Source: an uncultured Fidelibacterota bacterium (lineage in GTDB: Bacteria; Fidelibacterota; Marinisomatia; Marinisomatales; UBA1611). Taken from it: 64,000 nt of DNA. The stretch is taken from the NCBI GenBank assembly GCA_913040915.1, contig CAJWHW010000007.1:11239-75238 (forward strand). The letters are read 5' to 3'. Positions 6,633 to 55,446 of the stretch are shown one piece after another (within the stretch, counting starts at the first letter, position 1; each line of letters starts with the position of its first letter). The translations under genes and the position numbers were made by a program. Below the pieces are notes generated by a model. It worked only from the letters and a program-made list of their open reading frames with translations, did not search any database and was not told where the DNA came from.

Positions 6633-6642
6633 AAATACTCCT

Positions 6643-9247: not shown

Positions 9248-9251
9248 AGGA

Positions 9252-12207
<2,956 letters not shown>

Positions 12208-13047: not shown

Positions 13048-13064
13048 CAGGCATGATTTTTGCA
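13048..13064 (+). promoter_or_regulatory. Putative sigma-54 (-24/-12) promoter
   Basis: CAGGCATGATTTTTGCA has GG (13050-51), exactly 10 nt, then GC (13062-63), matching TGGCACG-N4-TTGC. It is intergenic, and rpoN is in the window. Confidence 0.6.
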
Positions 13065-13108
13065 TTGAAATTTACCCGCTTGAGATGGAAAGGGAAAATT
13101 TATTCTAA

Positions 13109-13356: not shown

Positions 13357-13363
13357 ATTGAAC

Positions 13364-14617: not shown

Positions 14618-14636
14618 TTATACAAAATTATTTTCA

Positions 14637-16537: not shown

Positions 16538-16541
16538 ATTA

Positions 16542-17822
16542 CTATTGCTTTTTCCATTCACTACCAAAGCCTTGGCCAACGGAAACAAGCATACCATGCT
16601 CAAGCTCCCTACTGATTGCCTTATAACTCCCTGTAACAATAGAAGCACCTTCATCAATTCCAGATTTCACAGCATAATGACTTTCACTATCTACATCCAC
16701 ATCTACAGGTGTAATAATAGCATATTTTTTCCCTTCAGGTGCAATCTCACTTTCAAATTCATCCTTTAAAACAAAGACTACTTCAATCATTTTTTCTTTT
16801 TTCCATCCTTCATTTTCTGAGCTTCTTTCAACGCCACGTCCCTCTTTCTTTTTTCCTGCCTTTCGTTTTGCCATTTTTTCATATTTCTCTGAGCGAGCAG
16901 TTAGAGATTGAATTGGGACAGAAATTGCATTTTTTCTTATTTCTGTAATGATATTAACTGTGCTACTCATCCCCGGACGAATTGTTCCTGGAGGGTCGAT
17001 CATTTTCACCTTTACTTTAAAATTAGTGACTTGCTCTTGGCTTCCTAAATTCATTGATTGAGCCGTATGGGCAATTTCACTTACAACCCCATAAAATATT
17101 GTATCAGGGAGTGCATCCACTTCAACTTCTGCAGTATCTCCTACAGATACAGTCACAACATCATTTTCATTTACATCTACTAGCACTTCCATTCTACTTA
17201 AATCAGCGATAGTCATTACAACACCGGGGTTGAACATCCCGCCAACAGCCATTTCCCCAACTTCTTTAGTCAAACTTGTAACAATACCATAGGCAGGAGC
17301 TAATAATTTGGTTTTGGAGAGTTCATCTTCTCTGGAAAGCAAGGATGAACGTGCCTGCTCCACTTGACTTGAAGCTAACTCAAAGGATGCTTCAATTTGT
17401 TCTAATTCCTGCTTGGATATCAGATTTTGTTCAAATAAAGATTCAGTTCGTATTTTTTGAGCTTTGACTTGCTTTAGATTTGCTTCGGCAGATTTCACAC
17501 TGGATAATGTTTGGTTATAAGCCGCTCTATATTGTTTTTCATCCAGAGCAATGAGCATTTGCCCAGGTCTTACTGTATCCCCTTCAGCCACAGTGATATC
17601 AGTGATCCATGCTGTAATAGTAGATGAAATTTGTACTTCTTCCTCAGGCTGGATTCTACCGTTTGCATTCACCTTATGGATAATATCTCTGCGGAGAACT
17701 TTCTCAGCTTGAACAGAAATTTCTTCATCATTGGAAAAGCCGATTACGCCATAAGATATCCATGCAAAGATGATAATTAATATAGGAATCCAGATTTTTT
17801 TCTTTTTAAAATGTTTTATCAT
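16542..17822 (-). CDS. Efflux periplasmic adaptor (MacA-like membrane fusion protein)
   Basis: N-terminal TM, lipoyl half-motif [11 protein letters not shown], coiled-coil hairpin, IADLSRM and IRPGMS. Confidence 0.92.
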
Positions 17823-17828
17823 ATTTAG

Positions 17829-19154
17829 TTAGTCTTCTTTGGTTTGAAACTCTAAATCCAAGGTCCCCAGTAAAGCTTTCAAACTTGCTTCTTGCATCCT
17901 GGCATCATGGATTGTGTTAATGAGTGTTGAATTTGAACGAATAAGAGATACTTGTGCATCAAGAACTTCTAAAATAGTTGCAGACCCTAAACTGTATCTT
18001 TCTCGAACTAATTTTAAATCTTCCTCTGCAGAAGCCACTACAGCCCGGTTAATAGGTATTATCTCAGTATAATTCTCCAAAGTTTTGCGAATCAATTCTG
18101 CTTGAACCCGCAGATCATTCAATAAGGTCACATAATTATATTCCGATTGCTGTTTAGATAATTTGGCCTGATGTTGCTGAACTGAAAGTGAATTCCCAGT
18201 ATAAATTGGGACACTGACAGAGAAATTCATCCCTAGAGACCAATTGTCTTTTATAGCATCCCTTAATTCTTCACTATTTTCTCCATTTGCTGAATAACTG
18301 ACAGAAGAATTGAGGGATGGCATCCGCATTCCTTTTACCATTTTATAGGAAATTTCCCCTAAATAAATCTGTTCCTGTGAAATGAGTAAATTAGGATTAC
18401 TTGTTTTTAAAACTTGAAGTATTTCGCTACTGGGTGGTATAACAGGGGCGGTCCAAGTATCCTCTCTAGCAGTAATCGGTTGTCCAAAGTCCTGTAGGCC
18501 CATGTCATTGAATAACACCCGGCGGGCATTATCAAGATTCGTTTGTCTACTTAGCACTTCTACTCTGGCCTGACCTTGTGCAACTTTAGCTTTTAATAGG
18601 TCAGTTCGCTTAACTACACCCAAATCAAATTGTTTTTGCACAAGGGAAACCTGTTGTTCAGACATCTCTAAATTTTTAAGTGCTACCTCATAAAATTCCT
18701 GTGCTTTTAAGAGCCCGTAGTAAGATTGAATAACATTTTGGATAACTTGAATTTTAGTGGAACGATGATTCAACCTTGCAATATTAAGCTGAGACTTAGC
18801 CTGCTTTACTTGGTTTAAAGAACGGCCACCATTAAAAATATTCTGATTTAAAGAAATACCGGCAGATATATTATCATAAGAACTTGAGAGTGTAGTATCA
18901 ACAGAAAATGTCTCAAAATTTGGTGTAATTGTTTCAACTTGAGGGAAATGTGTACGACCGGTGCTTGTAGAAGCACTTAATGAAGGTAGAAAGCCGCTGT
19001 ATGATCCCTTTACACCTTCTTCCGCAGAAAAAACACCCAACTCTGATGACTGCAGTGTTTTTTTCGAACCAAGTGCAATCTCAATACAATCAGCTAATTC
19101 ATATCCCTGAGCGAATAAGCCAGAAAAGAAAAATATGATAAATGATTTTTTCAT
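17829..19154 (-). CDS. TolC-family outer membrane efflux protein
   Basis: Signal peptide, two OEP repeats (QFDLGVVKRTDLL; RYSLGSATILEVLDAQ); first gene of the efflux operon. Confidence 0.9.
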   Translation of the reverse strand: MKKSFIIFFFSGLFAQGYELADCIEIALGSKKTLQSSELGVFSAEEGVKGSYSGFLPSLSASTSTGRTHFPQVETITPNFETFSVDTTLSSSYDNISAGISLNQNIFNGGRSLNQVKQAKSQLNIARLNHRSTKIQVIQNVIQSYYGLLKAQEFYEVALKNLEMSEQQVSLVQKQFDLGVVKRTDLLKAKVAQGQARVEVLSRQTNLDNARRVLFNDMGLQDFGQPITAREDTWTAPVIPPSSEILQVLKTSNPNLLISQEQIYLGEISYKMVKGMRMPSLNSSVSYSANGENSEELRDAIKDNWSLGMNFSVSVPIYTGNSLSVQQHQAKLSKQQSEYNYVTLLNDLRVQAELIRKTLENYTEIIPINRAVVASAEEDLKLVRERYSLGSATILEVLDAQVSLIRSNSTLINTIHDARMQEASLKALLGTLDLEFQTKED

Positions 19155-34812: not shown

Positions 34813-35295
34813 ATGAAAATAATTAATCAAATAAATATAAAACCCAGCGTGCGTGGTGAACATGGTTTACCCAAAAACTCTGTTCATCGTGTTCATATTT
34901 CTAAAATGGGCTTGGAAGGTGATTATAATCATTGGCGGAAAAACAAAAAACATAATGACCCTGATATGGCCGTTTTACTTTATCCTGTTGAAACCATAGA
35001 TGAATTGAATAATGAAGGTTGGCCTGTAAGGCCTGGTGATCTAGGTGAAAATTTGACAATTTCTGGTTTTAAACATTGCCACTTTAAACCAAATCAACAA
35101 TATCAAATTGGGGATTGTATCTTGGAAATTTCTTTGGAGTGTGATCCATGTACTAACCTTTCCGTACTTCCTTATGTGGGCAAACGAAAGATAAATGAAT
35201 TTATTAAAACCACCATGAAAAGACGAGGTTGGTATGCCCGTGTAATAAATGAAGGTTGGGTGGAAAAGGGCAATGAATTAAAACAGATTACATGA
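34813..35295 (+). CDS. MOSC domain protein (YiiM-like)
   Basis: GLEGD, AVLLY, PGDLGENL, CDPC and RRGWYARV..G.V..G. Confidence 0.85.
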   Translation: MKIINQINIKPSVRGEHGLPKNSVHRVHISKMGLEGDYNHWRKNKKHNDPDMAVLLYPVETIDELNNEGWPVRPGDLGENLTISGFKHCHFKPNQQYQIGDCILEISLECDPCTNLSVLPYVGKRKINEFIKTTMKRRGWYARVINEGWVEKGNELKQIT

Positions 35296-36011
35296 GTCAA
35301 ACAAAAAAATATAATATTTCAGGTATGACTTGCAGTGAATGTGTGGTTTTAATTAAAGATAAACTTCAAATTATCCAACAGGTTGAGAATGCTGAAGTTT
35401 CTTTGGAATCAAATTCCGTTCATTTGACCACTTCAACACCCGTTTCCATAAATATCTTACAGACAGCACTGCCAGAAAAATATACATTAAATGAACTGGA
35501 AACATCACCAAATAAAAAACCCATAATTGAAAATAAATCTGACTTAGGACAGTTATACCCACTTTTTCTTATCTTTTTTTATATCACAGCTTCAACTCTT
35601 ATCATAAATAGGGCTGATCTTAACGTAAGAAATTTCATGTATGATTTTATGGGGATTTTTTATATTGTTTTCAGTTTTTTTAAATTTCTAGATTATAAAA
35701 ATTTCCCAGATTCATTTGCTAAATATGATCCACTCGCAAAAATTATGCCTTTTTATGGATGGTCCTACCCATTCATTGAGACAATTTTAGGGATGTTATT
35801 TTTATTCAGATTAAAGCTCCAATTTGCATTGATTACAACTCTGGTAATTCTTGGCCTAACAACCGTTGGGGTTACGAAAGTATTGCTAAATAAAAACCCG
35901 ATCCAGTGTGCGTGTCTAGGTACATCCATCAAACTGCCTATGACTAGAGCAACCATCATTGAAAACAGCGTAATGCTAATGATGGCAATTTGGATGCTGC
36001 AATATAATTAG
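35292..36011 (+). CDS. Heavy-metal-associated (HMA) domain fused to a MauE/DoxX-like membrane domain
   Basis: GMTCSEC metal-binding motif; TM region with FAKYDPLA, YPFIE and IQCACLG. Confidence 0.82.
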   Translation: MSQTKKYNISGMTCSECVVLIKDKLQIIQQVENAEVSLESNSVHLTTSTPVSINILQTALPEKYTLNELETSPNKKPIIENKSDLGQLYPLFLIFFYITASTLIINRADLNVRNFMYDFMGIFYIVFSFFKFLDYKNFPDSFAKYDPLAKIMPFYGWSYPFIETILGMLFLFRLKLQFALITTLVILGLTTVGVTKVLLNKNPIQCACLGTSIKLPMTRATIIENSVMLMMAIWMLQYN

Positions 36012-36113
36012 AAAATATTTCATAAATTAATTTGTAAGCTCATTACAGTTTTTTCGACTGAATTTTTACTTTTATAAAATGATATTTTTGAATATTAATT
36101 TTTATTTGACAGT

Positions 36114-38363
36114 ATGTTAAATAGTTTTTCTAAGTTTATAATTAATCATCCTAGGATAATACTATCCAGTGTTTTTATCATTTCGCTTTTTCTTTCTTTT
36201 TTTATTCCGAATCTGAAAATTGATTTTTCCATTGAGCATTTATTTTCACAAAAGGATCCTGGAGTTGAAAAATATTTTTCATTTCGAGATACTTTTGGGC
36301 GGGAAGATAATGTTTTAACAATCATATATAAGCCAATAAATGTCTACGAGAAACAACTTTATATTGAGCTCGAGGAGTTGGTTTATGGCATAGAAGAATT
36401 AGATGGTGTAAAGAATGTAATATCTATTTTCACTTTAAGTGACATAGACCTTAACGCTTGGTTAGGAAATTTACATGATGATTATTTTCCATGGGATAAG
36501 GATACAATTTTTAAAAAATTGAGTTATATACAACAAGACCCATCAATAGGATGTAGAGTAATCTCTAAAAATTTACAATATGGTTCAATAATTATATCTC
36601 TAAAAGATAATGCCAATAATCATGGTAGGCGCACTGAACTTCTTGAAGAAATAAAAATTCTTACATCAAAGACTTCTGCAGAATGGACGTATTCAGGAGT
36701 ATCTGTCTTGAGAACAGAATATGTTCGCTATATGCTTCGAGACAATTTTGTTTTTTTACCTCCAATAGCGGTTATTTTTATTTCCATTCTTAGTTTTATT
36801 TTTCGTAACTGGGCCTATGTTTTATTACCTACACTAACAGTGATAATAACTGTAATCTGGTTATTAGGCTTTATGGGAATATTTGGATTAGAAATAAATA
36901 TTATGACCTATATAGTGCCTACGCTTCTAATTATTATTGGTATAAGTGATGCAATCCATATCCAAGCAAGGTTCAGAGAAAATTTCATAAAATATCCTTC
37001 AGATCCACTGGAAGCAATGCTTACGACCATGAACCAGATGACAAAAGTAATTTTTCTAACTAGTGTTACAACAGCAATTGGATTTCTGGCGCTCATGACC
37101 ACATCTATTCAAATTGTTAGAGAATTTGGTATGGAAATCTCTATTGGGGTAATGTTTGCCTGGCTGGTATCTATATTAATAGTACCATCCGGAATTATTT
37201 TTTCACAACAATTCAAAGTTAGAAAAAAAGATACATTTCAACCTTTTCTTATTTGGTTATCAGGAATTATCCCCAATAACCCATGGGCATTTATTATTGT
37301 TCCGAGTCTCATATCTGCAATATGTATTTACAAGATTAAAGATATTTCTACTGATGCATCACTCATGGATGATTTAAGACCTAAAAATAAATTGTATCAG
37401 GATCTCAAATTAACAGAGAAAAATTTTGGTGGTGTATTACCGTTTGAAATTTTAGTAAAAACCAAATCAAAAGAAATGAAGCAGGATGAAGTTTCTATTG
37501 ATAGTGAAGTTTTGCAGTTATCTAAAATGATTCAACAGCTACTTGAAACTGAGTTGAAAAATAGTCGGTTTTTTTCAGTAAATAATTTACTGGAATCTGC
37601 AAAACGGATTCAGGCAGGAAACAAAGCTAGTGTCAGTGATGAAATATTATTAAACCAAATACTTGAAAACCAATCAAGTGGTCAAATCAATCTAATAAAT
37701 GAAGGAAGAGATGTCCTTAGAATAACAGGTCTCATAGAAGATAAAACATCTAATGAGATGAAACAGATCTATACCAAACTTGATTCACTTTCAGATACTT
37801 TTTCTGAAAAGGTTTCTATTGATTATACTGGCACGACTGTAGTAGCATTAAACACGAATGATTATCTAGTACAATCCCTGGTTAATAGTCTTGGACTAGC
37901 TTTGATATTCATCAGTGTAATTATGGCAATTATGTTCCGTACTAACTCCATCCTTTTCGCTAGCCTTGTAACAAATCTGATCCCCATCTTTTCTGTTTTA
38001 GGTATTTTGGCTTGGCTTGGTATCTCAATACGTCCGCCTACGGCAATGACATTTGCGGTGGCTCTGGGAATAGCAGTTGACGACAGTTTGCATTTTTTAC
38101 TACGATACAGACGAGAATTAAGAAACGGTTTAAACCGAGTAAATGCAATTAAAGCAACCATAATCCATACAGGCTCTGCACTTTTGATTACTACATCTAT
38201 ATTGGTTGCAGGGTTCTCTGTATTATTACTCTCTGCATTTCTTCCTACATATCAATTTGGACTATTATCGGCAGTTATGGTTGGGACTGCTCTTCTTTGT
38301 GACCTTACACTATTGCCGGCACTTTGCTTAATATTGCCGAATCCAAGAAAAAATGAGAACTAG
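36114..38363 (+). CDS. MMPL-family (RND superfamily) transporter
   Basis: Two-repeat topology with two large periplasmic loops; TM4/TM10-type motifs GISDAIH and GIAVDDSLH; TSVTTAIGF. Confidence 0.9.
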   Translation: MLNSFSKFIINHPRIILSSVFIISLFLSFFIPNLKIDFSIEHLFSQKDPGVEKYFSFRDTFGREDNVLTIIYKPINVYEKQLYIELEELVYGIEELDGVKNVISIFTLSDIDLNAWLGNLHDDYFPWDKDTIFKKLSYIQQDPSIGCRVISKNLQYGSIIISLKDNANNHGRRTELLEEIKILTSKTSAEWTYSGVSVLRTEYVRYMLRDNFVFLPPIAVIFISILSFIFRNWAYVLLPTLTVIITVIWLLGFMGIFGLEINIMTYIVPTLLIIIGISDAIHIQARFRENFIKYPSDPLEAMLTTMNQMTKVIFLTSVTTAIGFLALMTTSIQIVREFGMEISIGVMFAWLVSILIVPSGIIFSQQFKVRKKDTFQPFLIWLSGIIPNNPWAFIIVPSLISAICIYKIKDISTDASLMDDLRPKNKLYQDLKLTEKNFGGVLPFEILVKTKSKEMKQDEVSIDSEVLQLSKMIQQLLETELKNSRFFSVNNLLESAKRIQAGNKASVSDEILLNQILENQSSGQINLINEGRDVLRITGLIEDKTSNEMKQIYTKLDSLSDTFSEKVSIDYTGTTVVALNTNDYLVQSLVNSLGLALIFISVIMAIMFRTNSILFASLVTNLIPIFSVLGILAWLGISIRPPTAMTFAVALGIAVDDSLHFLLRYRRELRNGLNRVNAIKATIIHTGSALLITTSILVAGFSVLLLSAFLPTYQFGLLSAVMVGTALLCDLTLLPALCLILPNPRKNEN

Positions 38364-39444
38364 AAAAAACATATATCAGATCAGAATTATTGTTTTGGGT
38401 AATATTCTATATTGTTATCTCATTGGTCAAAATCTTTCACTTAAGGGAATGCTTACGCTAAGCGGCTTAATAGGTGATGATGCTCCAAGAAATCTGCCAA
38501 CTTATGAATCAAGTATAGACTATATCCCTACTTTATCTATAGTAAAGGAATTATCTAGTAATACTTTTCTAGATGCAGAATGGAGTTATAGGTTAAAAAA
38601 AGACTACTCAGGAGATTCGCTCTATAATAAGATATATAAGAAAAATCGTTTATGGGCAAGATATTCAAGTGAGAAAATTGAAGCTAGGCTTGGTCTTCAA
38701 AAAATTATTTTTGGACCCACACAAATTCTCCGATCGCTTTCATGGTTTGATACATTTGATATAAAGGATCCTACCGGTCAGACAGATGGCGTAGAATCTT
38801 TTCGACTCAGATGGTTTCCATCCAATTCAATAGGTATTTGGACATGGGCAGTCCAAAATGATCACAAAATTGTTTCTTATGGAGGACGGGGAGAGGTTTC
38901 GACTCTTTTGGGCGAATGGGGGATAACATTCCATCATGACCCCACAAACTCGTTACAAATGATCGGTCAAACCAAAGTCTTGATTGATCAAGCTCACAAC
39001 AGAATGGCCCTGGATTTTAGATACGACGGATTTATTGGCTTTTGGAATGAAAGTGCTTTTTTATTTTCTAAAGAAAATAATATTGCACTGGTTACCATAG
39101 GAGCTGATTACACCTTGCCAATTGCCACCGGGATCATGCTTATGACTGAATCTATGTTGGTAAAAGATTATCAAATTGATTCGAACTCTACACAAACAGC
39201 TTTAATGGCCAGTGTACCCCTGGGCATGGTTTATCAGCTCATGTTTATTTCTCAATTTAATTGGGAAGAAAAAAAGAATTATAACTTTTTACGCCTGACT
39301 GCAACTTATGATCAATATGCTTTAAATTTTATCATTTCAATTAATCCAAAACGATCTGATTATAATGAAGCTGCTTATTTCCTGCCTAATACAGTGGCTG
39401 GTTTTGGCACGAACCTAAAATTCGTCTTCATGTATAATCATTAG
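38353..39444 (+). CDS. Hypothetical protein, probable outer-membrane beta-barrel
   Basis: Signal-like N-terminus, many amphipathic strands (ARLGLQKIIFG, YGGRGEV, VTIGADYTL) and C-terminal LKFVFMYNH; overlaps the MMPL stop. Confidence 0.6.
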   Translation: MRTRKNIYQIRIIVLGNILYCYLIGQNLSLKGMLTLSGLIGDDAPRNLPTYESSIDYIPTLSIVKELSSNTFLDAEWSYRLKKDYSGDSLYNKIYKKNRLWARYSSEKIEARLGLQKIIFGPTQILRSLSWFDTFDIKDPTGQTDGVESFRLRWFPSNSIGIWTWAVQNDHKIVSYGGRGEVSTLLGEWGITFHHDPTNSLQMIGQTKVLIDQAHNRMALDFRYDGFIGFWNESAFLFSKENNIALVTIGADYTLPIATGIMLMTESMLVKDYQIDSNSTQTALMASVPLGMVYQLMFISQFNWEEKKNYNFLRLTATYDQYALNFIISINPKRSDYNEAAYFLPNTVAGFGTNLKFVFMYNH

Positions 39445-39453
39445 GATATAATA

Positions 39454-40170
39454 ATGCAAAATAATTCTGTAGTAACTATTGAAAACCTTACAAAGCAGTT
39501 TCCAGTAGGTGGCAGTTTTTTCACAGCACTTAAAGATGTGGATCTGACCATTAACAAAGGTGAATTCACCGGCTTAGTTGGGCCATCTGGATCAGGAAAA
39601 ACAACACTGTTAAATATTATCGGCGGACTGGATTCTCCCACTGAAGGGCAGGTCAACGTATTAGACAATGCTCTAAATGATACGTCCCATAACGCTCGAG
39701 CGCGCCTGCGCCGAAAACATATGGGTTTTATTTTCCAAAGCTATAACCTGTTGCCAGTCTACACTGTATTTGAGAATGTAGAACTACCACTGATCTTGAA
39801 TAAGGTTGAGCAGGAAGAGCGGAAAGATATGGTAAAAAAAGCGGTTAAATCCGTCGGGCTAACCGATAAGCTAAATTCTCGGCCAAATATGTTGAGCGGA
39901 GGTGAATGTCAACGAACGGCTATTGCCAGAGCAATTGTCCATCAACCGGAACTTGTGTTGGCAGATGAACCAACCGCTAATCTGGATGCAGAAAATTCTC
40001 ATCAAATTATGAAAATCCTCACAGATTTAAATGAAAAGTTAGATACTTCCTTTGTTTTTGCTACACACGATGAAAAAATCATGGCCTACTTAAGACGTAT
40101 AATTCGCCTAGGAGATGGCCAAATAACTGAAGATAAAAAGATTGAGAACCCCAATGGAAAGAAATACTAA
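39454..40170 (+). CDS. ABC transporter ATP-binding protein (LolD-like)
   Basis: GPSGSGKTT, GFIFQSYNL, LSGGECQRTAIARA, ADEPTANLD and FATHD. Confidence 0.92.
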   Translation: MQNNSVVTIENLTKQFPVGGSFFTALKDVDLTINKGEFTGLVGPSGSGKTTLLNIIGGLDSPTEGQVNVLDNALNDTSHNARARLRRKHMGFIFQSYNLLPVYTVFENVELPLILNKVEQEERKDMVKKAVKSVGLTDKLNSRPNMLSGGECQRTAIARAIVHQPELVLADEPTANLDAENSHQIMKILTDLNEKLDTSFVFATHDEKIMAYLRRIIRLGDGQITEDKKIENPNGKKY

Positions 40171-41345
40171 TGCTGTTTAAGGTTGCTATCAAGAATCTGT
40201 TGGGCGCTAGGTTACGTACTATTCTGAATGTTCTTGTAACCGCTTTTTCATTTTTCTTAATCCTGTTCATGTCAGCAATGTATAATGGCATGCTGCAACA
40301 CGCCAAACAAGTCACCATGGATACAGAAATTGCCGGTGGCGCTTATTGGCACCCGGATTACGACCCACTGGATCCCATGACATTTGAAGATGCTCATTCA
40401 TCCCTACCAGAAGAAATACAATCATTGGTAAATCAAAATAATGCTTTCCCAGTATTGGTAAGCCAGGCATCCATCTATCCCGCAGGTCGCATCATGCCTG
40501 CCATTATGAAGGGTATTCCACCTGATCAAAGTATTGTAAATATGCCAACTAATGCACTTTCAAAAAACAATGATATATCAATTCCCGTCTTGATCGGTAA
40601 AGGAATGGCCAGCAATACAAAGCTGAAAGTGGGTGATACCTTTATCATCCGCTGGCTGGATGCTGATCGAACTTATGATGCAGATGAAGGTACGGTCGTA
40701 CACATTATGGATACGGAAAATTTCAAACTTGACATTGGCCATATCTGGATACCACTGGATAAAGCCCGATCTATGCTAGCCATGGAAAATGAAGCCACTT
40801 ACGTGACCTTTGAAAAAGGAGTGCCTTTAGTTCATAACCTTGGTGGTTGGATTCCCCGCGATATTAATTATCTAGTCCAGGATATGGAAGCTATTATTGA
40901 AGCAGACAAGCCTCAGGCCCAAGTCATGTATATGATCCTATTAGCCTTGGCTGCCATGGGAATTTTTAACGCTCAAGTATTATCTATCTTTCGCCGAGGA
41001 AGAGAGATCGGGACACTCATGGCAATAGGCATGACACGTCCAAGAGTGGTAGGACTTTTCACCTTAGAAGGAGGTCTCAATGCAATATTGGCAGCAGTAG
41101 CAACACTCATCTTTTTTGGTCCTGCACTCTGGTATTTTGGTGTATATGGAATACCGTTGCCAATTGATTACACCGAGATGGGTTTGATCATCGCAAAACG
41201 ACTGATACCGGTTTATACCATAGGCCTAGTTTTATCAACTACTATTCTTGTTTCACTGGTTGTATTGATTGTGAGCTATATACCGGCCAGGCGCATCACA
41301 CGAATGCAACCAACAGATGCTCTGAGAGGTAAGGCGATAGCATGA
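40170..41345 (+). CDS. ABC permease, FtsX/LolC-E family
   Basis: 1+3 TM topology with periplasmic domain; RGREIGTLMAIG and PARRITRMQPTDALR. Confidence 0.88.
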   Translation: MLFKVAIKNLLGARLRTILNVLVTAFSFFLILFMSAMYNGMLQHAKQVTMDTEIAGGAYWHPDYDPLDPMTFEDAHSSLPEEIQSLVNQNNAFPVLVSQASIYPAGRIMPAIMKGIPPDQSIVNMPTNALSKNNDISIPVLIGKGMASNTKLKVGDTFIIRWLDADRTYDADEGTVVHIMDTENFKLDIGHIWIPLDKARSMLAMENEATYVTFEKGVPLVHNLGGWIPRDINYLVQDMEAIIEADKPQAQVMYMILLALAAMGIFNAQVLSIFRRGREIGTLMAIGMTRPRVVGLFTLEGGLNAILAAVATLIFFGPALWYFGVYGIPLPIDYTEMGLIIAKRLIPVYTIGLVLSTTILVSLVVLIVSYIPARRITRMQPTDALRGKAIA

Positions 41346-42625
41346 TCAAATTTTTAACTAAAGGATTACTCCGAGACCGTTCCCGCAGTCTGTTCCCGTT
41401 TTTGGTAATAACGCTTACAGTTGCACTCGTTATATTCTCGCTCGGCTTTATGAAAGGTACTATGAACAGTATGCTACTTGACACCGCCGTGATCATGACC
41501 GGGCATGAAAAAGTAGTTACACGCGCCTACAATGAAGAAAGCCAACTCATGCCCAATGACCTGGCCTTATTGGAAGTAGATGAGCTTGTTGATGAGCTAA
41601 GTCAGAATTATCCGGAGTTGTTCTGGTTACCGCGAATTACCTTTGCAGGGTTATTAGATGTTCCAGATGAAGTGGGTGAAACAAAAGCACAGGGTCCCGT
41701 GCTTGCTTTTGGTATTGATTTCTTTAATTCTGGATCTCGTGAAGTTGAAATTTGGGAATTGGAAAAATTGATATTGAGTGGAACACTGCCTAAGAATAAA
41801 GATGATGCTCTTATTAGTTCAAAATTGGCGAATCAATTGAACGTAAAAGCTGGAGAGAGAGTCACATTTATAGGTTCCACCATGAATAATGCTTTTACAA
41901 CCTACAATTTCAATATTGCAGGCACGTTTAACTTGCGTAAGGGACAGACAGACAGGCAAATGATGCTTGTTGACCTCTCCGGTGCCCGCAATGCGTTGAA
42001 TATGGATAATGCTGCTTCAGCCATTTTCGGATTTAGCCACTCGTTATATTATGATGACGAAGCAGCCGTTATACGTCGTACAACATATAATGAAACCTAT
42101 AGTGACAGTATGGATATTTTTAGTCCTTTTATGCTTGCCCTACGGGATGGAAATCAGATGGGATCAATAGTAGATATAAGCGATGCAATGATGTCTATTA
42201 TGGGAGGAGTATTTTTAGTCGTGGTGATGGTTGTTCTCTGGAACATGGGACTCATGAGCGGTCTGCGCCGCTATGGTGAAGTCGGATTACGACTAGCTCT
42301 TGGGGAGTCCAAGGGACAGGTTTACCGATCTATGATCTCTGAAGCGTTAATCATCGGATTAACCGGAACGATAATGGGAACGGGCATTGGGCTTGCTATT
42401 ACCTATTTTGTCCAGGAGTATGGCATAGATTACACACAAGGAATAGAGGCATTATCAAATTCGTCTATGGTGATGCCCAATGTATTTTATGCTCAAGTTA
42501 CACCAGATCTATTTTTTATTGGATTTATTCCTGGCGTTTTGGCCACTTTACTAGGTACCATGCTAGCTGGCCTGGGCATATACAAACGGGAAATGGCGCA
42601 ATTATTCAAGGAACTGGAAACATGA
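41342..42625 (+). CDS. ABC permease, FtsX/LolC-E family
   Basis: Same topology; RRYGEVGLRLALGE; 4-nt overlap with the previous permease. Confidence 0.88.
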   Translation: MIKFLTKGLLRDRSRSLFPFLVITLTVALVIFSLGFMKGTMNSMLLDTAVIMTGHEKVVTRAYNEESQLMPNDLALLEVDELVDELSQNYPELFWLPRITFAGLLDVPDEVGETKAQGPVLAFGIDFFNSGSREVEIWELEKLILSGTLPKNKDDALISSKLANQLNVKAGERVTFIGSTMNNAFTTYNFNIAGTFNLRKGQTDRQMMLVDLSGARNALNMDNAASAIFGFSHSLYYDDEAAVIRRTTYNETYSDSMDIFSPFMLALRDGNQMGSIVDISDAMMSIMGGVFLVVVMVVLWNMGLMSGLRRYGEVGLRLALGESKGQVYRSMISEALIIGLTGTIMGTGIGLAITYFVQEYGIDYTQGIEALSNSSMVMPNVFYAQVTPDLFFIGFIPGVLATLLGTMLAGLGIYKREMAQLFKELET

Positions 42626-43362
42626 TTAAATTTGTTATTCTTTTAATTTCTTTCACATTTATTACGGGACAATCCAAAGAAATGACTGTGGATGATATTA
42701 TTCAGGCTATGGATAAAAATATGAATGCGAAATCCCGGATACTGACAAGCAAAATGGTTGTACACAGTAGGCGGGCAAGTCGTACCATTGAATCTCGTAA
42801 TTGGGTTGTGGGAACAGATAAAGCATTCACCGAATATTTATCTCCACCCAGAGAAGCGGGTACAAAAATGCTCAAATTAGGCGATAAGCTTTGGACCTAT
42901 TCGCCACAAACAGATCGAGTGATCCAGATCTCTGGCCACATGCTACGTCAATCTGTTATGGGGTCAGATATGTCCTACAGTGATATGATGGAAGACCGTC
43001 CATTGATGGATCTCTACGATGCTAAAATAGAAGGTTCTGTTGAAATTGATGGAAGGGATCATTGGATAATGATGTTAACAGCCAAAGTGAAAGGATTATC
43101 TTACCCTATGCGCAGAGCATGGATTGACAAAGAATATCTGGTCCCCATGAAAGAAGAATTATATGCCAAAAGCGGTAAACTACTAAAAACATCTACTATG
43201 CACGGCATCAAAAATGTACAGAATAGGTGGTTTCCTTCTCGTTTTATATTTAAGGATGAATTAAAACGAAATAGCAAAGGAACAGAATGGGTAATTGATG
43301 AAATTGAGTTTGATAGTGAGATTTCAGAATCTCGATTCTCAAAGGCACTACTTAGAAAATAA
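42622..43362 (+). CDS. LolA-like outer-membrane lipoprotein-sorting protein
   Basis: Signal peptide; YLSPPREAGTKML, LWTYSP, MGSDMSYSD and ELYAKSGKLLK typical of the LolA_like family. Confidence 0.82.
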   Translation: MIKFVILLISFTFITGQSKEMTVDDIIQAMDKNMNAKSRILTSKMVVHSRRASRTIESRNWVVGTDKAFTEYLSPPREAGTKMLKLGDKLWTYSPQTDRVIQISGHMLRQSVMGSDMSYSDMMEDRPLMDLYDAKIEGSVEIDGRDHWIMMLTAKVKGLSYPMRRAWIDKEYLVPMKEELYAKSGKLLKTSTMHGIKNVQNRWFPSRFIFKDELKRNSKGTEWVIDEIEFDSEISESRFSKALLRK

Positions 43363-44760
43363 CAAAACTGTTTCAATATGTTGTGTATGAGGAAACATAT
43401 CCACCATGACTGCAACATTTATATTGTACCCTTTTTCTACCAATACTTTTGCATCCCGAGCTTGAGTGGTTGGGTTACAGGACACATAAATAATTTTCTT
43501 AGCTTTTAGCTTTGGCAGGTATTGTAACATATCCGGATGTATGCCAGCACGTGGAGGGTCAACAATAATCACATCCGGCTTTGGGATTCGTTTTGGCAGT
43601 TGGCCCGATTTAAAAAATGTATCCAAATTCGCTTTTAAAAATTTTACATTTTCAATTCCATTTTTTAAAGCATTTCTTTCCGCATCTTCTAACGCCGAAC
43701 GAATCACTTCAAATCCATAGATATTTTTAGCTTCATTGGCCAGGTACAACCCAATCGTTCCCGTACCACAATATAAATCATATACAATTTCTTCGCCTGA
43801 AAGCTTGGCGACTTTCGCTACTTCATCATATAATCTTTGACCCTGTATGGTATTTGTTTGGAAGAATGAATTGGCTGAAATTTCAAATGTCAATTCGCCA
43901 ATTTTCTCTTCTATGGTTGATGAACCATATATAATTGTTTCATACTCACCAAAGGCCACATCTGCTTTTCGAGTGTTTACATTATTTATCATAGATGTGA
44001 TTTCCGGTACTTGGTCCAACAATGCATCCGTTAATGGGGACAATTTATTTAAATCATCATAAGCGGTGACAATATTCACCATGAGCTGATTGGTATTTAT
44101 TCCATAGCGAAGCATTAAAAACCTTAAGAATCCTATGTGAGTTTTAGGATCATATGGCCGTAATTCCGGATTTTTGCGGCAAACGTCTCTGGAAATTTTA
44201 AGTATTTGGTTACCTATTTCAGGCTGGATATGGCAATCATAGATATCCAATATTTTATCATAACGTCCCGGAATATGAAGTCCAACAGCAAAGGATTTAT
44301 CTACATGTTGCGGCTCTGACCCAAGAACCCATCGGTGTGGAGAAAAGGTGAATTCCATTTTATTCCGATAATTGAAAATTGGATTAGCTCCAATGGTTTT
44401 ATCTAACCTAAATCTTTTAAAACCGCCTAATCGGCGAAACGCATCTTCACTCTGAAGTGATTTTTCTTTAAGCTGTACTTCATAGGATAGGTTTTGAATT
44501 TTACACCCTCCGCAAACACTGAAATGTTCACAAGGCACATTTACAGCATCGGGGGAGTCTTGAAGCACTTCTAAAACACGAGCTTCTGCAAAACCTTTTT
44601 TCTTTTTATAGATAAGAGCTTGGACAGTTTGCCCTGGGATGGCACCGTTTACAAAAATGACAAAGTCATCTTTCCTTGCTAGACCCATGCCTCCATAGGC
44701 AAGAGACTCAATCTTTAGTTCTAATTCTAGACCGCGTTTTATTTTTATAAAGTCAGCCAT
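43348..44760 (-). CDS. rlmD: 23S rRNA (uracil-C5) methyltransferase RlmD/RlmCD
   Basis: TRAM domain, CxxxxxCGGC Fe-S motif, SFFQTN, DLYCGTG, VDPPRAG, YVSCNP and DMFPHT. Confidence 0.92.
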   Translation of the reverse strand: MADFIKIKRGLELELKIESLAYGGMGLARKDDFVIFVNGAIPGQTVQALIYKKKKGFAEARVLEVLQDSPDAVNVPCEHFSVCGGCKIQNLSYEVQLKEKSLQSEDAFRRLGGFKRFRLDKTIGANPIFNYRNKMEFTFSPHRWVLGSEPQHVDKSFAVGLHIPGRYDKILDIYDCHIQPEIGNQILKISRDVCRKNPELRPYDPKTHIGFLRFLMLRYGINTNQLMVNIVTAYDDLNKLSPLTDALLDQVPEITSMINNVNTRKADVAFGEYETIIYGSSTIEEKIGELTFEISANSFFQTNTIQGQRLYDEVAKVAKLSGEEIVYDLYCGTGTIGLYLANEAKNIYGFEVIRSALEDAERNALKNGIENVKFLKANLDTFFKSGQLPKRIPKPDVIIVDPPRAGIHPDMLQYLPKLKAKKIIYVSCNPTTQARDAKVLVEKGYNINVAVMVDMFPHTQHIETVLLFSK

Positions 44761-46929: not shown

Positions 46930-47784
46930 TTAAACTCCAATAGGGTGCCAGGTAGTTTTTATTTCCTGTGTTTTCAAAATTTGATACGGATCTTCTTTTT
47001 GCCAATCTTCATTGGAATAAATAATCGCATGCTTCACATTCAATGCTGCATTGGATTCAACCATTTGGATATGAGCTTTATTATCGCCACAGTAAATCAT
47101 TGCATTCACATCCATATGAGAAGAAAAATGTTCTAAGAGTTCATCTCTTTGGCCAGTGAAAATATTTACCACACCACTAGGGAGATCCGAAGTGTGCAGA
47201 ACTTCCGCAAATGAGACTGATGATATTGGCTTGGATTCAGATGCTAGAACCACCATTGTATTTCCCCCAGTGATGATAGGTGCTAAGATAGAAACAAGCC
47301 CCAGTAATGATGTATCATTTGGTGCAAAAGCAGCAACTACACCTGTTGGTTCCGGTATGGTGAAATTAAAATAAGGAAGCGATACAGGATTTACACGACT
47401 AAAAATTTGCTGGTATTTATCCGCCCAACCAGCATAATAAATAAGCCGATCAATAGATTGATCTAATTCTGTTTCAGCCTGTTTTTTGGTACTGCCTTGG
47501 AACATAAGCTCCTCTGTAAATTGATCCCGTCTGCCTTCCAACATTTCAGCTATACGATATAAAATTTGGGAACGGTTAAAGGCTGTTTTTCCTGACCATC
47601 CACCAACAGCCTTCCTTGCAGCTACCATAGCATTCCGAAAATCTTTTCTAGAACCACGGCAAATATTTACCACTGTTCCATCCTTTGGACTTTCCCATTT
47701 TATATATCGACCCGATTCCGTCCTAGGAAATTTTCCATCAATATATAATTTATATGTTTTTTGAATTTTAACTCGTTTACCCAT
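46930..47784 (-). CDS. Short aldehyde-dehydrogenase-fold protein lacking the catalytic domain
   Basis: ALDH NAD-domain motifs (RSQILYRIAEMLE, YYAGWADK, EPTGVV, GGNT, LPSGVVNI) but no ELGGK or catalytic Cys region; intact 284-aa ORF. Confidence 0.85.
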   Translation of the reverse strand: MGKRVKIQKTYKLYIDGKFPRTESGRYIKWESPKDGTVVNICRGSRKDFRNAMVAARKAVGGWSGKTAFNRSQILYRIAEMLEGRRDQFTEELMFQGSTKKQAETELDQSIDRLIYYAGWADKYQQIFSRVNPVSLPYFNFTIPEPTGVVAAFAPNDTSLLGLVSILAPIITGGNTMVVLASESKPISSVSFAEVLHTSDLPSGVVNIFTGQRDELLEHFSSHMDVNAMIYCGDNKAHIQMVESNAALNVKHAIIYSNEDWQKEDPYQILKTQEIKTTWHPIGV

Positions 47785-47793: not shown

Positions 47794-49242
47794 CTAATTC
47801 AAATCCACATAACCGCGGAGACCTTCTACCCCGCCTTCACTACCAACACCACTTTCCTTATACCCGCCAAATGGCGCACTAGGATCAAATTTATTAAATG
47901 TATTCGCCCAAATAACACCTGCACGAATTTCTTTGGACACTTTGAAAATTTTAGCCCCCTTATCTGTCCAAACACCACCAGAAAGGCCGTAGGGAGTATT
48001 ATTCGCTTTTGCAATCACTTCATCAATAGTTCTGAATGTTTGGATCGCAAGTACAGGACCAAAGATTTCTTCCTGCACAACCCGATTTGATTGACTTACA
48101 TCAGTGAAAATTATCGGAGCGCACCAATAGCCTTTATCTGGCATTTCAGATTTAGACTGATAAATGGTCCCTCCTTCATCTTTTCCCAATTGTACATATT
48201 CATTGATTTTCTCAAGTTGTATTTTTGAATTGATGGCACCGATGTCTGTATTTTTATCTAGGGGATCCCCCACAATAAGCGAATCCATTCGATTTTTCAG
48301 TTTAGAGATAACTTGTTCAGCAATGCCTTCCTGTAAGTAGAGCCGGGACCCGGCGCAACATACATGACCCTGATTAAAAAATATTGAATTAATAATCCCT
48401 TCCACAGCTTGGTCAATGGGAGCATCTTCAAAAATGATATTTGCTGCCTTACCACCCAACTCCAAAGTATATTTTTTTCCAGAGCCAGCCAAAGCTTTCA
48501 TAATATATTTTCCAACTTCTGTACTGCCAGTGAATGCAATTTTATCAATATCGGGGTGATTCACCAATGCCTGTCCTGTCTCAACACCACCGGTAACTAT
48601 ATTAATAACTCCAGGTGGCAGGTTGGCTTCTTGGATGATTTCTGCCAATTTCATAGCGGTAAGGGAAGTTGTTTCAGCTGGTTTTAAAACCAGCGTGTTC
48701 CCAGTTACCAATGCAGGTGCTAATTTCCAGGCCGCCATAAGTAATGGAAAATTCCATGGAATAATTTGACCTACCACACCTAATGGTGTAGGAGAAACAC
48801 CAGGGAAAGCATATTTTAATTTATCTGCCCATCCAGCATAATAAAAAAAGTGCGCAGCAGCAAGGGGTATATCTACATCACGAGACTCCCGAATAGGTTT
48901 CCCTCCATCCATGCATTCAATTACAGAAAACTCCCTAGCTCTTTCTTGAAGTAATCGTGCAATACGGTAAACATATTTTCCTCGTTCCCTTGGTCCCATT
49001 TTTGACCAAGTTTTTTTATAAGCATTTCTCGCTGCAACTACGGCTTTATTTACATCAGAGTCATCGGCTTCAGCAATTTTGGCAATTACTTTTTCGTTAG
49101 CTGGATTAATGGAATCAAAATATTTCTTTTGATAAGCAGGGACAAACTCGCCATTTATAAAAAGGTTGTATTGATTTTTTAATTGAATGTGATCGATGCT
49201 TTCAGGCGCCGGACTGTATTCCCAATTTACTGATTTATTCAT
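47794..49242 (-). CDS. NAD-dependent aldehyde dehydrogenase
   Basis: IPWNFPL, KPAE, FTGSTEVG, catalytic ELGGK and QGHVCCAG, EEIFGP and PFGGYKESG. Confidence 0.95.
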   Translation of the reverse strand: MNKSVNWEYSPAPESIDHIQLKNQYNLFINGEFVPAYQKKYFDSINPANEKVIAKIAEADDSDVNKAVVAARNAYKKTWSKMGPRERGKYVYRIARLLQERAREFSVIECMDGGKPIRESRDVDIPLAAAHFFYYAGWADKLKYAFPGVSPTPLGVVGQIIPWNFPLLMAAWKLAPALVTGNTLVLKPAETTSLTAMKLAEIIQEANLPPGVINIVTGGVETGQALVNHPDIDKIAFTGSTEVGKYIMKALAGSGKKYTLELGGKAANIIFEDAPIDQAVEGIINSIFFNQGHVCCAGSRLYLQEGIAEQVISKLKNRMDSLIVGDPLDKNTDIGAINSKIQLEKINEYVQLGKDEGGTIYQSKSEMPDKGYWCAPIIFTDVSQSNRVVQEEIFGPVLAIQTFRTIDEVIAKANNTPYGLSGGVWTDKGAKIFKVSKEIRAGVIWANTFNKFDPSAPFGGYKESGVGSEGGVEGLRGYVDLN

Positions 49243-53775: not shown

Positions 53776-55446
53776 ATGAAATTTCAAAACATTTTCCTTT
53801 TCCTATTTTCATTTATAATGATTTATTCTAAATCATTACAAGAAGGAGATACATTAGAAATTCATCCCATTACTTGGGATACACCAAGCCCGGAAGGTTG
53901 GGGAGCACAATATGAACAAATTATTGCATTTCCTGATTCCAGTAATTCCTGGGCAAAAATAATTATGGTGCAAACTCTGAAATGTGATTCCGCCACAAAA
54001 GGAGATAAATACCCATGTGGGGAATGGGATTATATTTGGAATGCATTTGTTCATGTTCCCCGTTTGGATTCAATAGAAGTATTTTCCATCGGCAGTTTTG
54101 TTACACCCTATGGAAAACGCTTGGTTATGGGGGGTGAATCAGGTTGGGAGTGGACATACGACATGACAGATTATTCTCCTATTCTTCATGGAGATCTTTT
54201 TTTAAAAGTAGGTAATAATCAGGAATTGTTGGATTTAAAATTTCTTTTTATCAAGGGTAAACCAACGAGAAATATTCTAAGTGTTAAAAATATTTATCCT
54301 TATGGCCATTATAAATATGGGCCCTTATCAGATGATGAAATGTTAAAAAAAACGACGCTCCATTTAAACCCTGATGCAGATGGTTATAGACTGAAGGCTG
54401 TGATTTCAGGTCATGGCCATGCCGGGCCAAGAAATTGTTGCGAGTGGGATAGCAAAACACATACATATTATATGAATGATTGGGAATTGTTCCGATGGAA
54501 TGTCTGGAAAGATTGTGGGAATAATCCAATTTATCCCCAAGGCGGAACCTGGCCTTTTGATCGAGCTGGTTGGTGTCCCGGAACAAAAGTAGATGAATAT
54601 GAATTTGAATTAACACCATTTGTCAAAACTGGGGATTCTATTGTTATCGACTATGGAATTGAACCATATTCTGATAATGGTGAAAAAGATGGTGAATTCC
54701 GAATGGCACATCAACTTTTTTCTTATGGACCGCCCAATTTTAAAAATGATATAGAATTGGCGGATATCATTTCACCCAGCTCAAAAGGAACCCACGCAAG
54801 GTTCAATCCTAGCTTAGGCCCACCAGTGATTATCATTAAAAATACAGGGTCTAATAATATATACTCCGCTACTATTGAATATGGATTAAAACATCGTAAA
54901 AAGACTGAATTTCATTGGCAGGGATTATTAAAATTTCTGAATACTGAAATAGTTACATTACCAGTCCCAAATTGGCATGGACTGAAAAATAATCCTCAAT
55001 TTGAAGTAACTTTGAAAAATCCAAATGGAATGGAAGATGAGAATCAATTTAATAATATAGCTACATCTATTATTTTATTACCAAAAGTTTTTCCCAAATC
55101 CTTCAAGCTACACATATTAACAAATGATGTTGCCCGCGCCCGTGAAAGTTCATTTACTATCACTAATTTGGATGGGACTCTATTTTACGAAGGAGATGAT
55201 TTTTCAGATTCAACGGATTACATAATCGAAATGAATCTAAAAAATGGTGATTATCGTTTTTTATTCAAAGATGAGATGGAAGATGGCATTTCACGACATT
55301 GGTGGCATCGAAATAGTGCCCCAGAAAAGATTGGTATCAATGGCAGCGTTAAATTTTTGACCATTGAGGGTGATACGCTTCATGAGTTTAATCCTGATTT
55401 TGGGCAAGAATTATTATTTAACTTTCGAGTAGGTAGGACACCATAA
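53776..55446 (+). CDS. Secreted peptide-N-glycosidase F-related protein
   Basis: Signal peptide; CGEWDY, FVTPYG, WTYDMTDY, SGHG, CCEW and CGNNPIYPQGGTWPFDRAGWCPG; additional beta-rich C-terminal domains. Confidence 0.8.
   Translation: MKFQNIFLFLFSFIMIYSKSLQEGDTLEIHPITWDTPSPEGWGAQYEQIIAFPDSSNSWAKIIMVQTLKCDSATKGDKYPCGEWDYIWNAFVHVPRLDSIEVFSIGSFVTPYGKRLVMGGESGWEWTYDMTDYSPILHGDLFLKVGNNQELLDLKFLFIKGKPTRNILSVKNIYPYGHYKYGPLSDDEMLKKTTLHLNPDADGYRLKAVISGHGHAGPRNCCEWDSKTHTYYMNDWELFRWNVWKDCGNNPIYPQGGTWPFDRAGWCPGTKVDEYEFELTPFVKTGDSIVIDYGIEPYSDNGEKDGEFRMAHQLFSYGPPNFKNDIELADIISPSSKGTHARFNPSLGPPVIIIKNTGSNNIYSATIEYGLKHRKKTEFHWQGLLKFLNTEIVTLPVPNWHGLKNNPQFEVTLKNPNGMEDENQFNNIATSIILLPKVFPKSFKLHILTNDVARARESSFTITNLDGTLFYEGDDFSDSTDYIIEMNLKNGDYRFLFKDEMEDGISRHWWHRNSAPEKIGINGSVKFLTIEGDTLHEFNPDFGQELLFNFRVGRTP

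Follow-up and report, generated by a model that had tools for sequence, protein, structure and literature searches.

A conserved five-gene module from a Fidelibacterota bacterium links a type VII ABC machine and a LolA-like carrier to an unnamed family of predicted outer-membrane barrels

In the DNA of an uncultured Fidelibacterota bacterium (GenBank assembly GCA_913040915.1, a 1.86-Mb draft genome that is 85% complete), we examined a stretch of 64,000 nucleotides from contig CAJWHW010000007.1 (positions 11,239 to 75,238; hereafter the window), in which six co-oriented open reading frames (ORFs) span positions 36114-43362 of the + strand. These encode, in order, an RND transporter of the HAE3/MMPL type, an outer-membrane beta-barrel, an ABC ATPase, two FtsX-fold permeases and a soluble periplasmic LolA-like carrier. 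Here, we show that the conserved unit consists of the last five of these genes (38353-43362), which form an accessory module of barrel, ATPase, two permeases and carrier, and that the RND gene is a lineage-specific neighbour dispensable to this module rather than a core component of it. [quoted passage not shown]

Conservation of the module was assessed in a synteny survey anchored on the barrel family, for which one genome was taken per species and 80 loci were kept with up to 10 kb on each side, and onto which the proteins of the window were mapped by tblastn. Forty-four of these loci extend at least 4600 nt beyond the barrel gene, and in 43 of them the ATPase, permease 1, permease 2 and LolA-like genes follow the barrel in the same order and on the same strand; in the single exception (L030), 798 masked N occupy exactly the position at which the ATPase is expected. 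The ATPase gene came next after the barrel in 66/67 loci. The five-gene order is kept in the ten most distant loci, where the barrel is only 25-33% identical and the other four proteins are 37-61% identical, and the records of distant loci are labelled Calditrichaceae (Calditrichota), SAR324, Fidelibacterota and Krumholzibacteria, besides Marinimicrobia. At the level of whole genomes, the barrel family was found in 176 of 301 genomes of the phylum (115/180 of those of high quality) and an orthologue of the LolA-like carrier in 169 of the same 301 (112/180), with the two tallies lying within one of each other in 29 of the 30 families listed and both standing at 0/30 in a family (f3) of streamlined genomes of about 1 Mb. 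Since this streamlined family lacks the barrel, while a different lolCE-like pair of the type found on contig C13 of the source genome is present in 61/61 genomes of the order, the streamlined family included, the module is accessory and not housekeeping. The preliminary description of the window spoke of an MMPL-barrel half and an ABC-LolA-like half; the natural division lies elsewhere, the barrel travelling with the ABC genes and the carrier. Of the six families that it proposed to follow by synteny, the five linked from the barrel downstream are thus co-conserved, and the MMPL gene is not.

This MMPL gene (36114..38363, + strand) encodes a 749-aa protein with 12 hydrophobic segments, predicted to be transmembrane (TM) helices, and two periplasmic loops of about 180 aa each, at residues ~28-207 and ~409-588. 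It matches PF03176 (MMPL) at 115 bits (3.5e-33), and its best NCBIfam match is the HAE3 model TIGR00921, at 236 bits, below the cut-off of 352. Of the 80 loci, 67 include at least 2500 nt before the barrel gene, and in only 18 of these is the RND gene its immediate upstream neighbour, a proportion that falls from 15/49 at a barrel identity of at least 45%, through 3/8 at 35-45%, to 0/10 below 35%; in the other loci this place is taken by an HMA-MauE fusion gene (9 loci), by pabC (1 locus) or by a gene that none of the query set matches. To follow the history of this arrangement, we used a quick maximum-likelihood tree of the barrel with 62 rows, 9 of the 80 loci having been dropped because the matched stretch contained a stop or an X and 10 because fewer than 300 residues were aligned. 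The RND-upstream state changes 5 times on this tree, at least 3 of these changes being forced by well-supported branches, and the window's nearest kin (L015 and L016, with 98% support) both lack the RND gene. Among 121 genomes searched in the order, orthologues of the RND (63-76% identity) were present in only 5 others, all from the window's own family. In 4 of these 5 the orthologue is next to the barrel gene; the fifth (L100) has it between valS and rlmD, without the five-gene module, the genome in question (G263) being 84% complete and giving no barrel match.

These observations bear directly on the reading put forward in the preliminary description, in which a proton-motive-force-driven RND and an ATP-driven ABC machine would both load one LolA-like shuttle that delivers to one barrel. 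In its favour, the RND gene is co-oriented with the barrel gene and shares 11 nt with it, and in a distant locus (L081) another MMPL gene (934 aa) precedes the module by 1.2 kb. Stronger encouragement comes from the source genome itself, in which four MMPL-type RND genes, only 22-28% identical to one another, are each clustered with a LolA-like gene, the RND of the window being the only one of the four without a carrier gene of its own right beside it. The first of the other three clusters (C8a; L012, G000:C8:25000-44000, positions 8945-13838, - strand) combines an RND, a LolA-like protein that also matches DUF1329 (3e-11) and a 402-aa outer-membrane-protein-like product that has a signal peptide, ends in ...KYHF and gives a sub-threshold DUF1302 match (E 0.054), and so offers an RND, LolA-like and barrel trio of the kind seen in the Ame systems discussed below. 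The second (C8b; L013, G000:C8:44001-60000, positions 1714-7175, - strand) holds an RND, a 102-aa gene, a LolA-like gene and an arylsulfotransferase-like protein with a type IX secretion C-terminal domain, and the third (G000:C55) repeats this layout, with the 102-aa gene between RND and carrier, on a contig that ends before the position of the arylsulfotransferase-like gene. This recurrent pairing is the best argument for the window's RND using the carrier of the module. It does not extend to RND relatives generally, however: in other genomes, the relatives at 32-40% identity had PF17131, the family of the carrier, in 0/42 ORFs within 1.5 kb on a Pfam scan of 20 of 23 loci, a scan that replaced an earlier tblastn check too insensitive for diverged LolA-like genes. 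Operons that join MMPL, LolA-like and ABC genes are also on record in Porphyromonas gingivalis and Prevotella intermedia (PMC10434189, PMC10470040). Set against this are the patchy occurrence of the RND gene upstream of the barrel, its absence from the nearest kin and its persistence in a genome that lacks the module. A single pathway of six parts is therefore not supported in the form in which it was stated and we consider it rather unlikely, although in this lineage the RND of the window may feed the same carrier.

We also noted the surroundings of the nearest non-orthologous relatives of this RND (L101, L102 and L115, at 37-40% identity, and L104, L111, L117, L118 and L120-L122), where genes for a tocopherol-cyclase-like protein and a SOUL heme-binding protein follow, or a PAS-UbiA prenyltransferase adjoins. 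These neighbours hint at a prenyl-lipid or heme-related cargo for the RND subfamily.

As regards the layout of the locus, the preliminary description was accurate: the ORF list of the window places the six genes at exactly the coordinates it gave, the junctions between them, in order, are -11, +9, -1, -4 and -4 nt, and neither TolC/OEP nor an HlyD adaptor was found by Pfam scan among the six genes or in their immediate flanks. Its six family assignments likewise held up, five through Pfam and NCBIfam matches and that of the barrel through a structural model. The RND gene is preceded by an AT-rich intergenic gap of 102 nt (36012..36113, + strand), which is the likeliest, though putative, site of an operon promoter because no other non-coding stretch of any size precedes the cluster. 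Scans of 35200-44000 were uninformative on operon structure, giving 31 sigma-70-type promoter sites against 35.8 +/- 6.4 in shuffles and 5 terminators against 5.7 +/- 2.7 by chance, with no excess of either. A look-up of RNA records for 37800-39600 returned none. Beyond the gap lie + strand genes for pabA/pabB/pabC-like proteins, a MOSC protein and an HMA-MauE fusion; at the other end, the LolA-like gene and the convergent rlmD share 15 nt. In the databases, the nearest relatives that carry a name are 'hypothetical protein' entries from metagenome-assembled genomes of Candidatus Marinimicrobia. The G+C content of third codon positions is 0.36-0.39 in the ATPase and the two permease genes (39454-42625), 0.25 in the RND gene, and 0.22-0.30 across the RND, barrel and flanking housekeeping genes. 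The contrast might point to a separate origin, but may come from nothing more than stronger constraint. The same three genes, for the ATPase and the permeases, are also the best conserved of all, with 82-87% identity to the best loci.

The barrel gene (38353..39444, + strand) encodes a 363-aa protein that has a signal peptide and lacks a lipobox, and that gave no Pfam or NCBIfam match. Its family comprises 639 representative clusters at E<=1e-3 and 478 at 1e-10; among 114 diverse members, the only Pfam matches were to Porin_4 (3), OMP_b-brl (1) and HMA (1), and the family profile found 0 matches among PDB sequences at E<=10. By sequence, the 363-aa protein belongs to neither Alginate_exp, OprD, LamB nor any other named family. 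The nearest named Atlas cluster has DUF1302 in 41% of its members (score 0.94), which serves as a lead only, and 0/16 members of the barrel family match DUF1302 (PF06980) even at E<=10. Comparison with the 402-aa protein of cluster C8a gave nothing significant by BLASTP and an hhalign probability of 22%.

An AlphaFold 2 model built from the 114-sequence alignment reached a pLDDT of 96.0 and a pTM of 0.87, superseding an earlier run with 27 close homologues that had reached a pLDDT of 65 only, and shows a signal helix at the N terminus followed by 18 long antiparallel strands, in the closed-barrel fold of the 18-stranded channel class. The best Foldseek match of this model is AlgE (E 8.4e-10, TMq 0.61), followed by general porins. 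Compared by VIA-align with 48,161 representative chains, it is closest to OccD3, OccAB4, OccD2, OccAB1, AlgE, OpdQ, MOMP, maltoporin, ScrY and Wzi (Z 20.0-22.7, rmsd 3.0-4.2 over 277-304 residues), a group that we take to consist of 18-stranded barrels, strand numbers not being stated by the tool. Classical porins score about Z 16 and the Omp85/TPS-type chains CdiB, FhaC and TamA only 12.4-13.8, and the protein has no POTRA or Omp85 Pfam match. The suspicion that the gene at 38353-39444 encodes a barrel, voiced in the preliminary description, is thus well founded. Across the family, the proteins carry signal peptides and a conserved C-terminal end of the form ...F/Y-N-H/Y. Other gene callers start the protein at Met33, cutting off the signal peptide (38353-38448); the alignment with homologues, and the signal peptides that these carry, favour the longer form, whose start lies further upstream and overlaps the end of the RND gene by 11 nt.

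The long non-strand segments of the model (residues 42-50, 117-146, 197-214 and 331-352) each lie between an odd strand and the next even one, and all other connections are 2-5 residues long. In porins, long loops are usually external and short turns periplasmic, and by this convention the spacing suggests long external loops and short periplasmic turns here too. The most conserved segment of the family (residues ~112-147, GLQKIxFGP...LRSLSWFD...DP) lies between strands 5 and 6. Porins carry the inward-folding loop L3 at the corresponding place, and from its position this segment would be inward-folding-loop-like.

Downstream of the barrel, the ATPase (39454..40170, + strand, 238 aa) is of the LolD/MacB/FtsE type (PF00005, 9.5e-38); its best NCBIfam match is the LolD model TIGR02211, which it reaches at 240.4 bits, below the cut-off of 307.75, with the FtsE, DevA and MacB models scoring nearly as well. 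Permease 1 (40170..41345, + strand, 391 aa) and permease 2 (41342..42625, + strand, 427 aa) match the FtsX domain PF02687 at 43.0 and 62.9 bits, respectively, above the cut-off of 25.5. Permease 1 has a first TM helix, a periplasmic domain of about 213 aa at residues ~37-249 and C-terminal TM helices, one C-terminal segment being split in two by a simple scan; permease 2 has a first TM helix, a periplasmic domain of about 246 aa at residues ~36-281 and 3 further TM helices. An FtsX domain above cut-off, a large periplasmic domain between TM1 and TM2 and an adjacent ATPase of the MacB/LolD type together place the pair among the type VII ABC transporters. MacB_PCD (PF12704) was not detected in either permease at E<=0.01, whereas it was detected in the C13 pair and in the other permease pair of the window. 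The nearest solved chains, found for the TM region only, are YtrF for permease 1 (E 0.0023) and MacB for permease 2 (E 0.0024).

The nature of the barrel and of this ABC machine leads to the question of direction. The reverse route would have the barrel take up a hydrophobic nutrient or a mislocalised outer-membrane lipid, which the LolA-like protein would ferry to the ABC machine, by uptake or in a retrograde manner like that of Mla. Uptake systems classically consist of a channel, a periplasmic carrier and an ABC transporter, and in Mla, too, a porin complex, a soluble carrier and an ABC machine work together. The best structural matches of the barrel are uptake channels, its conserved segment resembles an inward loop, and MlaD/MCE domains were detected in 0/61 genomes of the order, with the control detecting MCE in Bacteroides, so that this lineage is without that known route. 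Yet we know of no importer with the FtsX (type VII) fold. The module is also not universal, which would be odd for core lipid homeostasis, and no catabolic genes are conserved beside it. Characterised type VII ABC systems, among which LolCDE, MacB, FtsEX and YbbAP are named, act outward or as mechanotransducers (PMC5985334, PMC12646458). On balance, we consider inward transport very improbable.

Export would depend on the carrier (42622..43362, + strand), a 246-aa protein with a signal peptide and no lipobox that belongs to PF17131, the 'LolA3' type, at 180.9 bits (2.4e-53), exceeding the gathering cut-off of 30 bits and covering profile positions 1-183 of 184. Its relatives in the PDB are 3BUU (3.4e-13), 3BK5 (2.4e-12), 4Z48 (9.6e-11) and 9TP6, the LolA3 of P. 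gingivalis (3.9e-10); its score for DUF1329 (PF07044) is 18.1 bits, below the cut-off of 23.1, and the LolA family proper (PF03548) was matched by neither the carrier nor the source genome on Pfam scan. The crystal structure of P. gingivalis LolA3 has a hydrophobic groove; the arginine conserved in LolA is missing from this protein, and its binding to LolB is very weak (PMC13103446). In Flavobacterium johnsoniae, deletion of lolA3 gave no gliding or secretion phenotype (PMC11885536).

The preliminary description had several partners in view for the LolA-like protein, and the complex predicted here was that with the barrel. Using mature chains and family alignments, the pair scored 0.49 (0.44, 0.49 and 0.50 in individual runs) against 0.01 for the best control, with at least 80% agreement in contacts between runs and a partner pLDDT of at least 78. 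In calibration, the mark was reached by 116/157 solved complexes and by 2/215 mismatched pairs, but scores of 0.60 or less contained only 18 of the 157 solved complexes and both of the passing mismatches. The modelling thus gives weak support to docking of the carrier on the barrel.

We also considered whether the module might instead sort a subclass of lipoproteins, as a second Lol pathway whose outer-membrane acceptor, or gate for surface export, would be the barrel in place of LolB. The best NCBIfam matches point this way, being LolD for the ATPase and lolCE (TIGR02212) for the permeases, and the carrier falls in the LolA superfamily; lipoproteins are also among the cargoes proposed for the comparable BBJ23-29 set of Borrelia (PMC13078400). 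PF03548 was found in 0/61 genomes of the order, which might seem to leave room for an alternative LolA, but the Bacteroides control was silent too, so that the blank is uninformative and we rejected it as evidence. The Lol scores, moreover, are far below their cut-offs, at 37.0 and 38.7 bits against 362 for the permeases and about 240 against 308 for the ATPase, and the genome has a better candidate in its C13 contig, where a lysS-lolC-lolE-lolD-clpB arrangement encodes permeases that carry MacB_PCD and score 206 and 196 bits with TIGR02212 (themselves below the cut-off). Judged by sequence, the C13 operon is the housekeeping Lol-type transporter, and the view of the preliminary description that the cluster is not the canonical Lol system of the genome is borne out by these scores, by this separate operon and by the patchy distribution of the module, which is missing from 65/180 high-quality genomes of the phylum and from 30/30 of one family in which the C13-type pair persists. 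The properties of P. gingivalis LolA3 (PMC13103446) also speak against a lipoprotein route, as does the finding that a surface lipoprotein reporter is still correctly located in F. johnsoniae stripped of every LolA and LolB homologue (PMC11885536), and the barrel is porin/AlgE-like and not Omp85-like. We therefore judge sorting of lipoproteins quite improbable.

In our view, a lipid or a small amphiphile is more likely to be the cargo than a lipoprotein. This is favoured because TetR regulators stand beside the module in 3/12 distant loci (L084, L089 and L092) and occur in comparable Bacteroidota operons, because the barrel is channel-like, because LolA3 of P. gingivalis lacks the LolA arginine and hardly binds LolB (PMC13103446), and because loss of lolA3 in F. 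johnsoniae affected neither gliding nor secretion (PMC11885536).

Within the proposed export pathway, the ATPase and the two FtsX-fold permeases would assemble in the inner membrane into an ABC machine of type VII (MacB/LolCDE fold). Transporters of this type move large periplasmic domains with ATP, and LolA-fold proteins shield acyl chains in a hydrophobic groove. Here, such ATP-driven motion would draw the hydrophobic cargo out of the inner membrane on the periplasmic side and load it onto the soluble PF17131 carrier, which would cross the periplasm and dock on the periplasmic turns of the 18-stranded barrel, whose conserved loop between strands 5 and 6 would let the cargo into the outer membrane or across it. 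No TolC duct, membrane-fusion adaptor or LolB lipoprotein would be needed. The RND, as a lineage-specific addition, may hand a cargo of its own to the same carrier. In this scheme the direction of transport, the class of cargo and both hand-over steps are inferred from the families to which the proteins belong.

Several points weigh against export by the five-gene operon. Cargo, direction and physical contact all rest on inference from sequences and models, and the carrier-barrel score falls in a range where predictions are wrong more often than they are right, except when the pairing was already a likely guess. The nearest structural matches of the barrel are mostly uptake channels (Occ/OprD, maltoporin, ScrY), which fits import equally. 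The periplasmic domains of the permeases match no Pfam family and, by sequence, no solved structure, and only topology suggests that these domains resemble those of LolC/E or MacB. The carrier belongs to a class without a demonstrated role anywhere, since deletion of lolA3 in F. johnsoniae gave no phenotype, and no gene for cargo synthesis is conserved in the flanks of 12 distant loci (41 ORFs). Finally, the survey was anchored on the barrel, and its reverse check was made through genome-level tallies, not by pairing gene with gene.

No paper describing the five-gene set or the barrel family was found among Creative Commons papers in PMC and bioRxiv (without supplements), and the statement in the preliminary description that no characterised system has this full composition still holds for characterised systems. 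Similar combinations are nevertheless already in print, with a cargo known for none of them: BBJ23-29 of Borrelia, AmeABCD, and operons of Porphyromonas and Prevotella. The BBJ23-BBJ29 system of Borrelia burgdorferi, an in silico proposal, likewise involves neither TolC nor an adaptor (PMC13078400). Its barrel is described as Omp85/BamA-TamA-like, whereas the one studied here is an 18-strand barrel of the porin/AlgE type, to which Omp85 chains are much less similar (Z 12.4-13.8 against 20-22.7); it has one permease, proposed to act as a homodimer, where the module has two paralogous ones; and it adds two TPR proteins and BBJ29, of which none was found in the present cluster by Pfam scan.

In Proteobacteria, the AmeABCD or DUF1302-DUF1329-BNR-HAE3 RND systems combine an HAE3 RND with a barrel and a LolA-superfamily protein in place of TolC and an adaptor, and their mutants show cofitness and hydrophobic-substrate phenotypes (PMC6394551; 10.1101/072470; 10.1101/2020.07.04.188060). 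Within the source genome, it is cluster C8a, with its RND, LolA-like protein (DUF1329, 3e-11) and 402-aa outer-membrane-protein-like product, that resembles this type. In the module, by contrast, the engine co-conserved with barrel and carrier is an ABC machine and not an RND, no BNR/COG4447 propeller was found in the cluster by Pfam scan, the barrel does not match DUF1302 (0/16) and the carrier is below the DUF1329 cut-off.

Further analogues are PG1175-81 of P. gingivalis and three operons of P. intermedia, which encode a TetR regulator, two ABC ATP-binding proteins, an MMPL protein, an 'outer membrane lipoprotein-sorting protein' and hypothetical proteins, and whose genes respond to iron or heme limitation with 13- to 136-fold induction, among the strongest seen (PMC10434189, PMC10470040). 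These FCB-group operons have in common with the window an MMPL protein, a PF17131-type protein (LolA3-PG, 9TP6, E 3.9e-10 to the carrier) and ABC genes. They differ in that their MMPL is constant, TetR is part of the operon, and the ABC genes are given only as 'ATP-binding proteins', no FtsX permease being named in the passages on these operons (PMC10434189, PMC10470040). The combination of MMPL, LolA-like and ABC genes has thus been seen before in the FCB group, without an established function.

Well-studied envelope systems resemble the module in part. LolCDE-LolA-LolB shares with it a type VII ABC heterodimer, a LolD-type ATPase, a LolA-fold carrier and an outer-membrane acceptor, and differs in that the equivalog scores of the module are far below cut-off, its carrier is PF17131 and not PF03548, its acceptor is an integral barrel and not the LolB lipoprotein, and it is accessory. 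MacAB-TolC likewise pairs an FtsX-fold permease with a MacB-type ATPase, but the cluster has no HlyD, OEP/TolC or MacB_PCD match. LptB2FGC-LptA-LptDE and MlaFEDB-MlaC-MlaA/OmpC each comprise an ABC engine, a periplasmic lipid binder and an outer-membrane barrel complex; the ABC folds, carrier folds and barrel types of these two systems differ from those found here, and MCE domains, as noted, are absent from the 61 genomes of the order.

The window itself provides an internal contrast to this adaptor-free module. A set of genes on the - strand (13364-19154) encodes an OEP/TolC protein (17829-19154), an HlyD adaptor (16542-17822), a 268-aa ORF that by its position between adaptor and permeases is possibly the ATPase (15851-16657) and two permeases with MacB_PCD and FtsX domains (14637-15851 and 13364-14617), and by these matches is a classical MacAB-TolC-type pump. 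The source genome thus has three FtsX-type systems: the lolCED-like operon of C13, this set and the module.

Genes with heavy-metal-associated (HMA) domains recur around the module. The HMA-MauE fusion gene of the window (35292-36011, + strand) lies upstream of the RND gene; the 9 related loci in which such a gene stands directly upstream of the barrel are L017, L022, L040, L041, L044, L046, L047, L049 and L052, and in L060, L061 and L066 it lies about 2 kb downstream of the module, while an HMA P-type ATPase lies downstream in the distant locus L081. Together with the iron and heme regulation of the comparable Porphyromonas operons, these neighbours hint at a metal link, or at merely inherited synteny.

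Elsewhere in the window, a 284-aa ORF (46930-47784, - strand) matches the aldehyde dehydrogenase profile over no more than the profile's first half (positions 7-231 of 461) and adjoins a full-length aldehyde dehydrogenase of 482 aa (47794-49242, - strand), of which it may be a truncated paralogue. A 982-aa homologue of TMEM260-like protein O-mannosyltransferases (22565-25513, - strand) and a protein with a PNGase F C-terminal domain (53776-55446, + strand) appear to be glycosylation-related genes, unusual in a bacterium.

Passage of hydrophobic molecules across the periplasm without a continuous duct is well understood only for a few routes, such as Lol, Lpt and Mla. What appears to be new here is the delimitation of a five-gene core, the identification of an unnamed 18-strand barrel family as its outer-membrane partner, the spread of the module over several phyla and the dispensability of MMPL. 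LolA3-type proteins thereby gain a testable context and a candidate partner in the outer membrane, and the separation of the core module from its optional MMPL neighbour allows experiments to be aimed at the right genes. In the broadest terms, PF17131 carriers and dedicated barrels might make up modular lipid conveyors, free of TolC and adaptors and driven by either an ABC or an RND engine, that would sustain intermembrane lipid traffic in lineages without Mla; the 363-aa family would then be a new kind of lipid-translocating barrel, a counterpart of LolB or LptD, and the window would capture two engines acting on one carrier and one barrel. We regard this wider picture as distinctly unlikely. 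For the present, the finding is of value as a well-delimited hypothesis. Marinimicrobia abound in the ocean, and we came across no cultured representative; should the cargo prove to be a membrane lipid or a metal-related lipophilic molecule, the module would bear on how these bacteria build their envelope.

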